DNA from: Fibrobacteria bacterium
GTDB taxonomy: Bacteria; Fibrobacterota; Fibrobacteria; UBA11236
Direction: 5' to 3'
DNA length: 64,000 nucleotides
Assembly: GCA_041746255.1 (NCBI GenBank)
Contig: JBGTHM010000005.1
Location: forward strand, 64,001 to 128,000
The notes under the pieces were generated by a model. It did not search any database, was not told the origin of the DNA, and saw nothing but the letters and a program-made list of their open reading frames with translations. This document shows positions 59,796 through 63,667 of the stretch, one piece after another (the first letter of the stretch is position 1; each line of letters starts with the position of its first letter). A program made the position numbers and the translations under genes.

Positions 59796-60290
59796 TTAAT
59801 CGGGCTTGGGGGCGTCGGGGAACAGCGAGTCGATTTGATCGGCCAATTGCTGCCCATGGGTGACGTCGGGCATCATGTCTTCCATCTCGTTTTCCCTGAC
59901 CATTTGCAGGGCTTCTCCCAATTTAACCTTGGCTTGACCCGCCACCATTTTGACCAGGCCGAGATTGGTACGATCATCAAATATCAGTACCATGATCACA
60001 TCTTCATCGACAAGCGATATGTGAATATTCTCCTTTTCCCCTTGATGGAACATCATGGAGAACTCCGACTCGCCGATAAGGGCCGCGATAGCCTTGGTGG
60101 ACGCGAAGGTTCCCGCGGCCAAAGCGGCCAAGCTGGTCACGTCGAAACGGGGATTGAAACCGACCTGGGCGATGAGGTTTCCGTCCTTGTTGATGAGCAA
60201 CACATAGCTGGAGGCGCTCTCGGTGATGAGATGGGAAAGGATCTTATTCAGCCTTTCCACGTCCTCCTTGAAGAGTACGAAATCTCCCAT
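59796..60290 (-). CDS. mglB: MglB-like roadblock/LC7 protein (GAP)
   Basis: LLINKDGNLIA, SLAALAAG, LIGESEF..MFHQGEKENIHIS, TNLGLVK, closely resembling Myxococcus MglB. Confidence 0.88.
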   Translation of the reverse strand: MGDFVLFKEDVERLNKILSHLITESASSYVLLINKDGNLIAQVGFNPRFDVTSLAALAAGTFASTKAIAALIGESEFSMMFHQGEKENIHISLVDEDVIMVLIFDDRTNLGLVKMVAGQAKVKLGEALQMVRENEMEDMMPDVTHGQQLADQIDSLFPDAPKPD

Positions 60291-60293
60291 CGC

Positions 60294-62015
60294 CTATTTC
60301 TCTTTTCCGAACAGCCCGCCGAACAGGCCCTTCTTCTTTTCGGAAGGAAGGGGGATGCGGCGCGTCTTGAAATCTCCCTGGCGTTGGTCTTCGTAGGTCG
60401 ACACGATGCCGCTTTGATCGGATCGCGGTGGGGGCTGAATAAAAGGAGAGGGTCGCGGCTGCTGTTCCGGCGGGGGATAATTCCCCTGCTGACCGCCGCC
60501 TGGACCGAATGGATTGGGATTGTCCTGCCGATTTTGCGGATTACCCTGCCCGGGTTGGGGACTGCCGAATGGAGACGGATTGAACCCGGCATTGTTTTGA
60601 CGATCCATGGTCGGTAAGGCAGGGCCTCCCGGTCCGGCCGGGGGAAATTTTGGAGGAAACCCTCCCGGGCCAGGGCCAGGGGGTTGACCGCCGGGGGATC
60701 CAAAAGGCGAGCCCTGCGGGGCTTGCGGTGGATACGGCCGTTGCGGTGCGGAACCTCCGAAGGGATTTTGCGGTGGCGAACCAAAGCCTCCCTGTTGCGG
60801 GGGAGAACCGAATCCTCCCTGTTGCGGCTGGGACCCGAACCCGCCTTGTTGGGGTGCGGAACCGAAACCATCTTGCTGCGGTGCGGAACCGAATCCGCCT
60901 GTTTGCGGTGGAGATCCGAAACCTCCCGGGGGACCTCCCGGAGCCGGACGCGGAGGCATGCCACCCGATCCGCCTGGATTGCCAAATCCTTCTACGAAGG
61001 GGGCGACGGGAATATTCGGATTCTGCCCGGAAAACCCTCCCGGCGGAGCAGGGGGTCGATTTCCCATTCCCGGATTCAAAAACGGTGAACCGGGCTGTGG
61101 CGGCGGAGCTGCGAAGGGATTGGAGGCCGGTTGCTGGCCACCGGGGGAACCGGAATGCCCCCCTTGGAGAAAGGGATTGGGCGACTGTTGCGAAGCGGGC
61201 TTAGGGGGTGCAGGAAAGCCGCTGTTTTGGGCAAAACCACCCTGGGCGGGAGCGCCGAATCCCGCTTGTCCCGGAAAAGATTGGCCGCCTTGCTGCGGAA
61301 AACCGGATTGCGGCGGCATGGCCTGCGGAGCCGGCCTGGCCGGTGGACTTTGTGGTGCGGAGGTTGGCGCCGGACGGCTTTGTCCCGGGCGCATTGCCGG
61401 TGGACGGCGGGTTCCGCCCTGGTATCCCGCGTACTTGGCGTTGAACCTGTCTATGACGGACTTGCCGATGGCTTTCAAAGTCGTGAAGACGCCGACACCC
61501 GTTGAAGCCACCGCTTCGAAGTAAGGCGATTGGTATTTGTTCAGAAAACTGCTGAGTTCCTCCACCGACATCACGTTAGGCAAATCACGCTTGTTGAACT
61601 GCAATACCATGGGAATAGTATCGAGAGAGTGACCGTATTCCCGAAGGTTCTCCTCAAGATTGGCGAAACTTTCCAGGTTCTCCTGCAGCTTATCGGCTTG
61701 CGAATCCGCAACGAACACCACTCCATCCACACCGCGCAGCACCAATTTGCGTGTGGCATTGTAATAAACCTGTCCTGGTACGGTATAGAGCTGGAATTTG
61801 GTGGAAAAGCCTTTGATGGAACCCAGATCAAGGGGGAGGAAATCGAAAAACAGGGTGCGATCGGTTTCCGTTGCGAGCGATACCATTTCGCTCTTTTCCT
61901 TGTTGGGAACCTTACGGTGGATGATCTGCAGATTGGTGGTCTTCCCGCTTAAACCGGGCCCATAATAGACAATCTTGCAGCTTATTTCTCGGGTAGCGTA
62001 ATTAATCGATGCCAC
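60294..62015 (-). CDS. mglA: MglA small GTPase fused to a ~380-aa low-complexity tail
   Basis: KIVYYGPGLSGKTTNL, TETDRTLFFDF, TVPGQ, NKRD; then a P/G/Q/F-rich tail ending KKKGLFGGLFGKEK. Confidence 0.92.
   Translation of the reverse strand: MASINYATREISCKIVYYGPGLSGKTTNLQIIHRKVPNKEKSEMVSLATETDRTLFFDFLPLDLGSIKGFSTKFQLYTVPGQVYYNATRKLVLRGVDGVVFVADSQADKLQENLESFANLEENLREYGHSLDTIPMVLQFNKRDLPNVMSVEELSSFLNKYQSPYFEAVASTGVGVFTTLKAIGKSVIDRFNAKYAGYQGGTRRPPAMRPGQSRPAPTSAPQSPPARPAPQAMPPQSGFPQQGGQSFPGQAGFGAPAQGGFAQNSGFPAPPKPASQQSPNPFLQGGHSGSPGGQQPASNPFAAPPPQPGSPFLNPGMGNRPPAPPGGFSGQNPNIPVAPFVEGFGNPGGSGGMPPRPAPGGPPGGFGSPPQTGGFGSAPQQDGFGSAPQQGGFGSQPQQGGFGSPPQQGGFGSPPQNPFGGSAPQRPYPPQAPQGSPFGSPGGQPPGPGPGGFPPKFPPAGPGGPALPTMDRQNNAGFNPSPFGSPQPGQGNPQNRQDNPNPFGPGGGQQGNYPPPEQQPRPSPFIQPPPRSDQSGIVSTYEDQRQGDFKTRRIPLPSEKKKGLFGGLFGKEK
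60768..60926 (-). repeat. Six 27-bp coding tandem repeats (GGFGSxPQQ)
   Basis: GGFGSPPQT GGFGSAPQQ DGFGSAPQQ GGFGSQPQQ GGFGSPPQQ GGFGSPPQ, with synonymous divergence between units. Confidence 0.9.
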
Positions 62016-62043: not shown

Positions 62044-62379
62044 TTATTTGATTAGCGGCGCTACCTGCGCGATTTCGACACGTATCAATCCGGTATTAGC
62101 CTGACTTTCGGCCATTACCACCAGATACCCCAATTCCACGGCCTGTACAAAAAACTTTCCCTCGCTCGCTTCGATCATGGTCTGGATGAGTTTCCCCGAT
62201 TGGGAGGCCGCGATTATCTTATCGGCCATTTGTTGCGCCGAAACGATGAGCGCACCAATAAACTCCGAGGGAACGGGAGTTCGGAACAGGGAGACGATTT
62301 CTATCCCGTCCGCGCTTACCACGCTCGAACCCCTGATTCCCTTTATCTGATTAAGTCTTTCTAATATACTTGATATCAT
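62044..62379 (-). CDS. Roadblock/LC7 protein (MglC/MglB-like)
   Basis: L..LNQIKGIRGSSVVSADG, G.L.QTMIEASEG, ANTGLIR. Confidence 0.85.
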   Translation of the reverse strand: MISSILERLNQIKGIRGSSVVSADGIEIVSLFRTPVPSEFIGALIVSAQQMADKIIAASQSGKLIQTMIEASEGKFFVQAVELGYLVVMAESQANTGLIRVEIAQVAPLIK

Positions 62380-62385
62380 CGGATT

Positions 62386-62817
62386 TCAGCCTTTGGCATA
62401 TCCCTTCGCCTGCAGAAGTTGCGCGACAGCCTGTGCGCCGCGCTCGATTCTCAACTTAAATAATTCATAGCTACCTTTTGTCCCCGCAATCATGAGAAAA
62501 AAGCGGCAGCCTGCATCCAAATTTATGATCTGGTAGAACTTATTATCGCTAAATACGATCTGACTTTCCAGGGCTCCGAACCCTAAGTCCTTGAATTGCC
62601 TCAAATTGGCCAGATAGCGGTCTAAAAAATAGGGCGATTCAATGAGCATGCTTTCCTGCGTATTCTCTCCCATGGCAACCACCAAGCATTCCTGGCTGTA
62701 CACCACGGCCCCGTCCATGCCGTTTACCAGGCTTAAATAGCCCAGACAGGTATCCAGATCGTGGGAGTCGACCATATTGGCCGCTCCCCCGGTAGCGGGT
62801 GAATTCGGATTAGACAT
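62386..62817 (-). CDS. Divergent roadblock-like protein
   Basis: L..L..VNGMDGAVVYS.E.LVV, LGFGALESQIV; overlaps the upstream gene. Confidence 0.55.
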   Translation of the reverse strand: MSNPNSPATGGAANMVDSHDLDTCLGYLSLVNGMDGAVVYSQECLVVAMGENTQESMLIESPYFLDRYLANLRQFKDLGFGALESQIVFSDNKFYQIINLDAGCRFFLMIAGTKGSYELFKLRIERGAQAVAQLLQAKGYAKG

Positions 62818-63667
62818 GGGAAGATTCCGTTCCGGGAAGGGAGGTAGCTGCCTGGGTGCGCTCACGAAAGATTTTTTCCAGTCGCACGAGCGAAAGCTGC
62901 GCTTTTTGCAGATTCTCGGATATCAAAGCAACGCCATACTCTCCCCGGAACAAGCTGAAAAGCGTGAAACGTTCGAATTGCAAGACAATCCGATGAATGC
63001 CTCCGCCTTCCAAGTCCCACACCGCGGTGGATAAATCACCGGGTAAAATTTTATCCAGAACGTCAATCAATCCGTCAAGGTTTTCAGAAATACCGGCCTT
63101 CCGCCTGACCCCCGTTTTCTGGTTCCAACCGAAAAATTCCAGCGTTCCGGCCTCGTCCAAAAGCTGTCGGTACGCTTCGGGATCCAGCGGATCTTCCGAG
63201 GAGTGGGATGGCCCCTTGTCCAAGGCGTCGACAGGATTTTCCGTAGGCGAAGCGGCCGGGGAGATTACTTCAGAAACAGCGGAAGGGGTAGCGGGGGCAG
63301 CCTCCGAACGCGAGTTTTGATACTCCTCCCAAATCACCGCCTGTAACAAAGAGAGGTAACTGGCTTGATTCGGGTCGACTCTAAGCCGATGTAACAGCTG
63401 CTCTTTGGGTTCGTCGTACCGGCCCGACCGGGTTTGCATGAAAACTTCCATGCAGAACAATACCTCTTGCATTCCGGGTTCGGTTCGGGTCGGCAAGCCC
63501 GCCAATACGTGACGCGCCAAATCGATTTGGCCCGATTTAATCTGGGTATAGGCGTAAGCGAGAGTGCTGGAGGCCTGCAACCGGTTGCGGCAAACGGGGT
63601 TGTCATAGACGGTTTCGGCGACGGTCGCAACGCGGACCGCGGATATTCCCGGTTCCTTTACAGTCAT
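62810..63667 (-). CDS. TPR-like helical protein with C-terminal roadblock-like domain
   Basis: LAYAY...G..DLA..VL helices; P/A/S/E linker; C-terminal L.GGGIHRIVLQFE...VALIS pattern. Confidence 0.5.
   Translation of the reverse strand: MTVKEPGISAVRVATVAETVYDNPVCRNRLQASSTLAYAYTQIKSGQIDLARHVLAGLPTRTEPGMQEVLFCMEVFMQTRSGRYDEPKEQLLHRLRVDPNQASYLSLLQAVIWEEYQNSRSEAAPATPSAVSEVISPAASPTENPVDALDKGPSHSSEDPLDPEAYRQLLDEAGTLEFFGWNQKTGVRRKAGISENLDGLIDVLDKILPGDLSTAVWDLEGGGIHRIVLQFERFTLFSLFRGEYGVALISENLQKAQLSLVRLEKIFRERTQAATSLPGTESSHV

Follow-up and report, generated by a model that had tools for sequence, protein, structure and literature searches.

MglA is the model Ras-like switch of bacteria, and all mechanistic studies have taken it to be soluble and to reach the poles by binding partners. 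Available parts of two studies describe the roles of the TxPGQ motif and of the intrinsic Arg finger in MglA (PMC3000849, PMC4316618), and one of them reports group 1 MglA in Fibrobacteres (Wuichet and Sogaard-Andersen 2014, PMC4316618); the portions of its text on extensions and membranes that were available mention no tail on MglA. MinD, as described in the available part of a review (PMC6803595), carries at residues 256-270 an amphipathic membrane-targeting helix whose affinity is weak and which keeps MinD membrane-bound only when two copies or more are present. Here we analyze the mglA gene in a 64,000-nucleotide stretch of a Fibrobacteria bacterium genome (contig JBGTHM010000005.1, positions 64,001 to 128,000 of the forward strand; hereafter the window), the product of which has a long C-terminal tail with a MinD-like end. 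Judging from the sequences of this protein and its relatives, we consider it likely that this MglA is tethered to the membrane by a MinD-type end peptide on a long leash.

The tailed MglA and its C-terminal end

The mglA open reading frame (ORF) occupies 60294..62015 on the minus strand, opens with GTG, closes with TAG at 60294-60296, and encodes 573 residues arranged as a G domain, a Pro/Gly/Gln-rich linker of ~335 residues, and a conserved basic end module of ~40 residues. The G domain (61431..62015, minus strand; residues 1-195) contains the P-loop GPGLSGKT, R53, T78-VPG-Q82, and NKRD. In phmmer searches, residues 1-190 matched the solved MglA chains 6h17_A, 5ymx_A, 6hjh_A, and 3t12_A with E values from 2e-76 to 1e-72 (2.2e-76 for 6h17_A, the best, and 1.2e-72 for 3t12_A), a result that confirms the identification of the GTPase as MglA made in an earlier note on this DNA; the domain also scores above the cut-offs of Pfam Ras, Arf, and Gtr1_RagA. 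YTVPGQ at 77-82, in which Thr replaces the Asp of G3 (TxPGQ), and R53 align with the same residues of M. xanthus MglA, and both columns are invariant in our alignment A1. The alignable G domain, TxPGQ with the Arg finger, and an adjoining Roadblock-type MglB are those of group 1 MglA, while the length of 573 residues sets the protein apart from the single-domain form of ~195 residues. We found no second MglA in the host genome (4.59 Mb, 130 contigs), and the tailed protein is its sole copy. Membership in the MinD/ParA family was rejected: the protein has a Ras-like G domain only, with no deviant Walker A ATPase domain, and is not a MinD.

The last residues of the protein, 560-573, read KKKGLFGGLFGKEK and are encoded at 60297..60338 on the minus strand, next to the stop codon at 60294-60296; a longer reading of the C-terminus is ...SEKKKGLFGGLFGKEK / ...FKTRRIPLPSEKKKGLFGGLFGKEK. 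The earlier note had placed a MinD-like end at 60294..60338, which is exact (14 codons plus the stop), and had quoted the end of E. coli MinD correctly, as translation of NC_000913.3 gives EEEKKGFLKRLFGG. The two ends share a K-K-G-F-phi-x-x-phi-F register, a Lys-Gly lead-in, and two Phe plus two Leu. Both KKKGLFGGLFGKEK and EEEKKGFLKRLFGG stand at the extreme C-terminus and have a phi-phi-x-x-phi-phi core between basic flanks, and comparison with E. coli MinD and with the family consensus of the MglA end, (K/Q)KGF[LF]xx[LF]F[NK][KR][DE], bears out the proposed MinD-like register. Among motif-bearing proteins, the last 30 residues have a mean net charge of +5.8 and the rest of the tail of -4.8; the window's own MglA carries a net +5 over its last 26 residues.

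The motif at the end of MglA is beyond chance. A six-frame set of 36,866 ORFs of at least 60 aa from the same genome was searched for the loose motif [KRQ]G-phi-phi-x-x-phi-phi in the last 25 residues; 16 ORFs carry it, 13 of which are frames of 60-169 aa, and MglA is the only one assigned to a protein family, the other 15 not having been checked one by one. To follow the motif among relatives, we assembled 170 sequences, a sample that was not random (120 database proteins from the top of the similarity ranking and 50 genes from hand-picked loci); 9 run off their contig and 161 are complete. The end peptide is kept in 108 of these 161, which end phi-phi-x-x-phi-phi, as the conservation expected of orthologues had required; 30 end ...PTRRMPLGPG, 5 end ...ELRPY(V/I)PKKK, and 18 have other or truncated ends. 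The 79 unique motif-bearing tails agree on K(-2) in 69 cases, on G(-1) likewise in 69, on F(0) in 70, and on F(+5) in 78. Besides the family to which the window belongs, eight or more families from the other classes of the phylum have the motif, across linkers that differ greatly in length and sequence. Third codon positions of the motif vary in ten same-family genes (GGC/GGG/GGT/GGA; CTG/CTC/CTA/TTG/CTT; TTC/TTT) while the peptide stays constant. The end motif is under protein-level selection: with third positions free and the peptide kept, selection acts on the protein and not on the overlapping mglB start region.

The peptide is the last of three elements in the end module. Element 1, SGIVSTYED (60387..60413, minus strand; residues 535-543; alignments A1 and A2), corresponds to MYFTSV(D/N) in the aligned sequences from the phylum's other classes. 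Element 2 is a basic-proline stretch, FKTRRIPLP (60345..60371, minus strand; residues 549-557), in which columns P27 and P29 of A2 are invariant and which aligns with K(K/R)PVNPK elsewhere in the phylum. Element 3 is KKKGLFGGLFGKEK itself, and its counterpart in the other classes is QKGFLSKFFNKD. Searching 1.84 billion representatives with a profile of this module (45 residues) gave 85 matches at E <= 0.001, 76 of which are single stretches at the very C-terminus of MglA or of Pro/Gly/Gln-rich MglA fragments; the remaining 9 are multi-stretch matches in long unrelated repeat proteins. By this profile search, the end module as a whole belongs to MglA.

The statement that such a tail is not typical of MglA needs to be divided: it holds against the characterized proteins of 195-203 aa, and it fails within this phylum, where tails are the rule. 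An MglA is present in 170 of 201 genomes of the phylum, and open frames below 260 aa make up only 9 of 150 among the matches listed, several of them at contig ends. Short MglA copies of 188-226 aa occur in a few phylum genomes (L050, L051, L052; genomes G159 and G121); G121 also has a long copy, and G159 has two short matches and no long one, with one of the two looking truncated. Fibrobacterota-type MglA tails, ending ...LDIKPF... and ...IELRPYVPKKKT, are also carried by two records labelled Bifidobacteriales and Sodaliphilus (L095 and L112), labels that probably reflect mis-binned contigs.

Related tailed MglA genes outside the window's own group are, on the sequences compared, the strongest support for membrane anchoring. 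We searched across phyla, with a single genome for each species and two G-domain peptides as seeds, and obtained 79 loci with 71 complete genes, the G domains of which are 65-69% identical to the query. A phi-phi-x-x-phi-phi tail end was found in 45 complete genes (19 labelled Fibrobacterota, 13 Zixibacteria, 9 Ignavibacteria, 1 Prosthecochloris, and 3 unlabelled), another aromatic/basic end such as KFSLFGWLKRLGRK in 8 (Zixibacteria 3, Ignavibacteria 2, unlabelled 2, Fibrobacterota 1), and a hydrophobic 19-residue tail stretch with a Kyte-Doolittle mean of at least 1.8 in 10, which are all 10 complete Planctomycetota genes; 6 genes have no hydrophobic tail end (4 Fibrobacterota-type, 2 BRC1/Sumerlaeota), and 2, both from Fibrobacterota, encode short proteins (<= 235 aa). 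The Zixibacteria and Ignavibacteria tails end KKRGFFKRLFGIK, almost the MinD peptide. In Planctomycetota, hydrophobicity peaks at 2.5-3.0 on the Kyte-Doolittle scale (six tails), and basic residues precede the hydrophobic stretch in the tails inspected, the pattern to be expected of a tail anchor that leaves the G domain cytoplasmic. Since the peptide, other amphipathic ends, and a transmembrane helix interchange on the same kind of leash, the membrane would fit easily as their common target, and one protein partner hardly.

Several other origins and roles for the end were considered. The MinD family (TIGR01968) was not found above its cut-off in the same genome (best score 69.7 against 212.9 bits) and was found in 0 of 121 phylum genomes at E <= 1e-40. 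We therefore rejected a resident MinD as the source of the peptide; with no MinD in the phylum genomes searched, the likeness would not be a recent loan from such a gene. FtsA of the same genome (L056 1489..2724, G000:C60) ends in an ordinary, different amphipathic helix, FREILRKMGDWVKQYV; if both ends are anchors, the organism therefore has at least two different peptide anchors. No other protein of the genome with an MglA-like end could be assigned to a family. The last 40 residues of MglA contain no Cys and thus no CaaX box, and no transmembrane helix was found in the protein, the highest 19-residue Kyte-Doolittle mean being 1.07, inside the G domain. A PIP-box or clamp-binding reading of the xxxLxxFF pattern was rejected, with Lys at the Gln position and a signalling GTPase as the protein, and so was a C-terminal degron, given the charged last residues KEK against the hydrophobic ends of known tags.

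Weighing a proposed membrane tether

A number of observations weigh against a membrane tether. Over 10-residue windows, the hydrophobic moment averages 0.56 for 42 unique family variants and is 0.554 for MinD; the window's own copy, at 0.42, is the lowest of the 42, and 26% of shuffled sequences reach it. Glycine at both polar positions and on both sides of the core makes this copy the least amphipathic, with a polar face composed entirely of glycine (4 of 8 residues are Gly). For the family median, 13% of shuffles reach the moment, and for MinD 14%; the test is not significant. In 11-residue windows, the end is not among the tail's top windows and 53% of shuffles reach its value. The helical-wheel analysis that the earlier note had proposed as a check, with a moment of 0.42, the lowest of 42 and equalled by 26% of shuffles, does not carry its claim. 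The near-invariant K, G, and two Phe form a pattern tighter than a generic lipid-binding helix needs, one that fits protein recognition as well. MglA is not known to dimerize. According to the available part of the MinD review (PMC6803595), a single MinD-type peptide is not strong enough to keep a monomer membrane-bound. Two lineages, moreover, have tails that lack the motif, namely Fibrobacter-type proteins of about 315-350 aa, which end ...IELRPY(V/I)PKKK, and the f4 lineage, which ends ...PTRRMPLGPGQ; the motif is therefore dispensable for some tailed MglA. Both lineages still keep the tail and its basic-proline element (PTRRMPLGP in f4, ELRPYVPKKK in the Fibrobacter-type), and it may be through SGIVSTYED and FKTRRIPLP that tails in general bind their partners.

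Among other explanations, we regard as unlikely that the end peptide is a protein-docking short linear motif for a Roadblock protein, MglB, the PATAN protein encoded nearby, or the protein's own G domain. In FtsZ, a conserved C-terminal peptide that follows a disordered linker binds FtsA or ZipA, and the layout of MglA, with its G domain, disordered linker, and short conserved end, is that of FtsZ. The nearly invariant K(-2), G(-1), F(0), and F(+5) would suit such docking, as would the non-significant amphipathicity test, and SGIVSTYED and FKTRRIPLP have the look of binding motifs and are retained where the terminal peptide is missing. However, no neighboring gene is lost along with the peptide in f4, the peptide matches a proven lipid-binding sequence, and other phyla swap it for aromatic/basic ends or a transmembrane helix, which is a poor fit to one pocket. 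A complex prediction with the G domain (1-200), two MglB copies, and the tail (520-573) scored 0.00 in both runs with its controls unfolded and carries no weight either way.

Two further explanations concern the surroundings of the peptide. The two GLFG units could be the last stickers of a Phe/Gly-rich cohesive linker that drives self-association, or a condensate at the pole. The linker has 24 Phe, 12 FG dipeptides, and six GGFGSxPQQ-like repeats in 325 residues, and this copy's end reads GLFGGLFG; yet the ends of relatives read GFFDGLFKK or GFLSKFFNK, basic and not Gly-rich, linker composition differs widely (PGQ fraction 0.09-0.44 among the end-module profile matches), and the end keeps its C-terminal position, beside a basic patch of a kind absent from the linker. 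We hold this explanation to be quite improbable. Least probable of all, and in our view hardly credible, is that the tail end has no function of its own and owes its conservation to constraint on the DNA, imposed by the ribosome-binding region of mglB where it overlaps the last codons. Only 3 bases separate the stop of mglA from the start of mglB, and the last codons of mglA, GGA AAA GAG AAA, are purine-rich; against such a constraint, third positions of the motif vary among 10 relatives with the amino acids kept, and the motif persists where mglB lies hundreds of bases downstream (about 800-1400 bases from the G-domain match, tail included; positions vary).

A membrane tether remains the reading we favor, and the earlier proposal of it is supported in part: the MglA identity, the linker, the conserved MinD-like end, and the related genes with MinD-like ends or a transmembrane helix all speak for it, while the wheel test for this copy does not. 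The sequences show the architecture, its conservation, the resemblance to the MinD peptide, and, in related tailed MglA genes, a transmembrane helix in place of the peptide. In the mechanism that we propose, the last 14 residues would act as a MinD-type membrane-targeting peptide. Its core would fold into a helix at the inner membrane's cytoplasmic side, where two Leu and two Phe (i, i+1, i+4, i+5) would insert into the cytoplasmic leaflet and the flanking Lys/Arg would bind acidic lipid head groups. On the linker, the G domain could range over a layer some tens of nanometres deep beneath the membrane and encounter there, at high local concentration, MglB, the Roadblock proteins, and the gene row's two membrane proteins. 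Because one such peptide binds weakly, stable residence would probably need avidity, either from clustering by partners (for example, via the two middle elements) or from Phe-rich linkers associating with one another. That the peptide forms a helix, that it binds lipid, and that it depends on clustering are all inferred.

More tentatively, and with somewhat less than even confidence, we suggest that MglA could usually be membrane-attached and not soluble over much of the bacterial tree (Fibrobacterota, Zixibacteria, Ignavibacteria, Chlorobi, and Planctomycetota). A MinD-like peptide, some other aromatic/basic peptide, or a transmembrane helix would serve interchangeably as the anchor, placed at the tip of a disordered leash, and the length of the leash would set the reach of the switch. 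A single weak peptide anchor would then make residence dependent on clustering, and the tail would serve as a coincidence detector that concentrates active MglA at its membrane partners. If true, this would be a prokaryotic parallel to Ras nanoclusters.

Linker and gene neighborhood

The low-complexity linker (60414..61430, minus strand; residues 196-534) bears out the earlier description of a long leash after the G domain. Of the 325 linker residues measured (196-520), 26% are Pro, 22% Gly, and 13% Gln; 24 are Phe, and FG dipeptides number 12; six tandem GGFGSxPQQ-like repeats lie at 60765..60926 on the minus strand (residues about 364-417). The layout of Phe and FG is reminiscent of cohesive FG repeats. 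Only two small islands of this otherwise variable linker are conserved among 21 same-family sequences, NPF at 299-301 and IPxAPFVExF at 335-344 (60984..61013, minus strand), and may be further short binding motifs. Across relatives, linkers of 100 to more than 600 residues precede the conserved end; since that end stands in frame after all of them, the long ORF is translated as one protein. An AlphaFold2 model of the full-length protein from a 32-row alignment has linker and tail all in coil with no end helix (mean predicted local distance difference test score 48.6); the G domain itself is badly modelled, and because the model is poor, the lack of an end helix in it says little.

Directly after mglA, on the same strand, mglB (59796..60290) encodes a 164-aa Roadblock/LC7 protein (Pfam Robl_LC7, E 3.6e-11) and starts 3 bases after the mglA stop, with its start codon at 60288-60290 and the stop of mglA at 60294-60296. 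The best NCBIfam match of this protein is the MglB model, at 80.7 bits and below the cut-off of 200. The purine-rich end of mglA (last codons GGA AAA GAG AAA) just upstream of the mglB ATG suggests translational coupling. mglB lies downstream of mglA in 16 of 18 loci of relatives. On the other side of mglA, and directly upstream of it, a second Roadblock/LC7 protein of 111 aa (62044..62379, minus strand; Pfam Robl_LC7, E 3.5e-8) adjoins mglA in 6 of the 18 loci, comprising 3/3 same-family and 3/3 f4 loci. The same gene row continues with a 159-aa protein (62386..62865, minus strand) that has no Pfam or NCBIfam match and is present in 7 of the 18 loci (f1, f4, and one f2 locus).

Away from mglA and in the same direction, the upstream order is the 111-aa Roadblock protein, the 159-aa protein, a 285-aa protein of no family, a DUF4388 protein, a 718-aa membrane protein, and a sigma-54 response regulator. 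The DUF4388 protein, a domain that we take to be PATAN, has 392 aa and a predicted membrane helix near residue 295; together with the 718-aa protein, it lies at L054 1665..4879 (G000:C5), just past the end of the window. These two proteins adjoin mglA in 12 of the 18 loci (tail classes A, B, and f2) and in 0 of 4 Fibrobacter-type loci. The f4 lineage, which lacks the terminal motif, keeps all neighbors found with these queries except orf285, which was not detected there. Among the 18 loci, no neighboring gene was found whose presence tracks the peptide.

Comparison with known systems

In the literature searched, with supplements left out, we found no paper on a membrane-targeting tail of MglA, and motif strings other than that of MinD gave no match. 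The closest solved proteins are MglA of M. xanthus and T. thermophilus (6h17, 5ymx, 6hjh, 3t12), which are alike in the G domain, in T78-VPG-Q82, R53, and NKRD, and in the adjoining mglB. In contrast to the Fibrobacteria protein, which has 378 further residues and a basic, putatively amphipathic end, these proteins have 195-203 residues and are tailless. The tailed MglA of Zixibacteria, Ignavibacteria, and Planctomycetota stand nearer, with 65-69% identity in the G domain, a disordered tail, and a hydrophobic end. The Zixibacteria and Ignavibacteria end, KKRGFFKRLFGIK, is the same motif as that of Fibrobacterota, whereas Planctomycetota use a transmembrane helix; the tails of all three groups are shorter (about 130-280 residues), and the middle elements of Fibrobacterota (SGIVSTYED, FKTKKLP) were not seen in them.

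The likeness to the E. coli MinD targeting sequence lies in the extreme C-terminal position, the register, the two Phe plus two Leu, and the basic flanks. The MinD peptide, however, sits directly on a dimerizing Walker ATPase, while here the peptide is joined to a Ras-like GTPase by a disordered linker of ~335 residues; it is therefore not obvious how nucleotide could control a doubling of the anchor here. The available part of a preprint reports that the C-terminal amphipathic helix of Mycoplasma FtsZ binds the membrane directly (bioRxiv 10.1101/2023.08.29.555414). That protein is alike in having a GTPase domain and a C-terminal amphipathic helix, and differs in that its GTPase is of the tubulin type and forms a polymer with built-in avidity, whereas that of MglA is of the Ras type.

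The hypervariable region of eukaryotic Ras and Rho offers a further parallel, as it appears to share with this tail a small GTPase, a flexible C-terminus, and a basic patch beside a membrane-inserting element. The differences are that MglA has no cysteine and no CaaX box here, that its anchor would be a peptide and not a lipid, and that its linker is more than 10 times longer. By analogy with these systems, the end of MglA would probably work like the MinD anchor or the Ras hypervariable region, outside both families. If whole phyla run this switch on a membrane leash, models of polarity-GTPase localization need a second mode; and, if true, the anchoring of small GTPases in eukaryotes by a flexible basic C-terminus has a bacterial counterpart in which peptides replace lipids.

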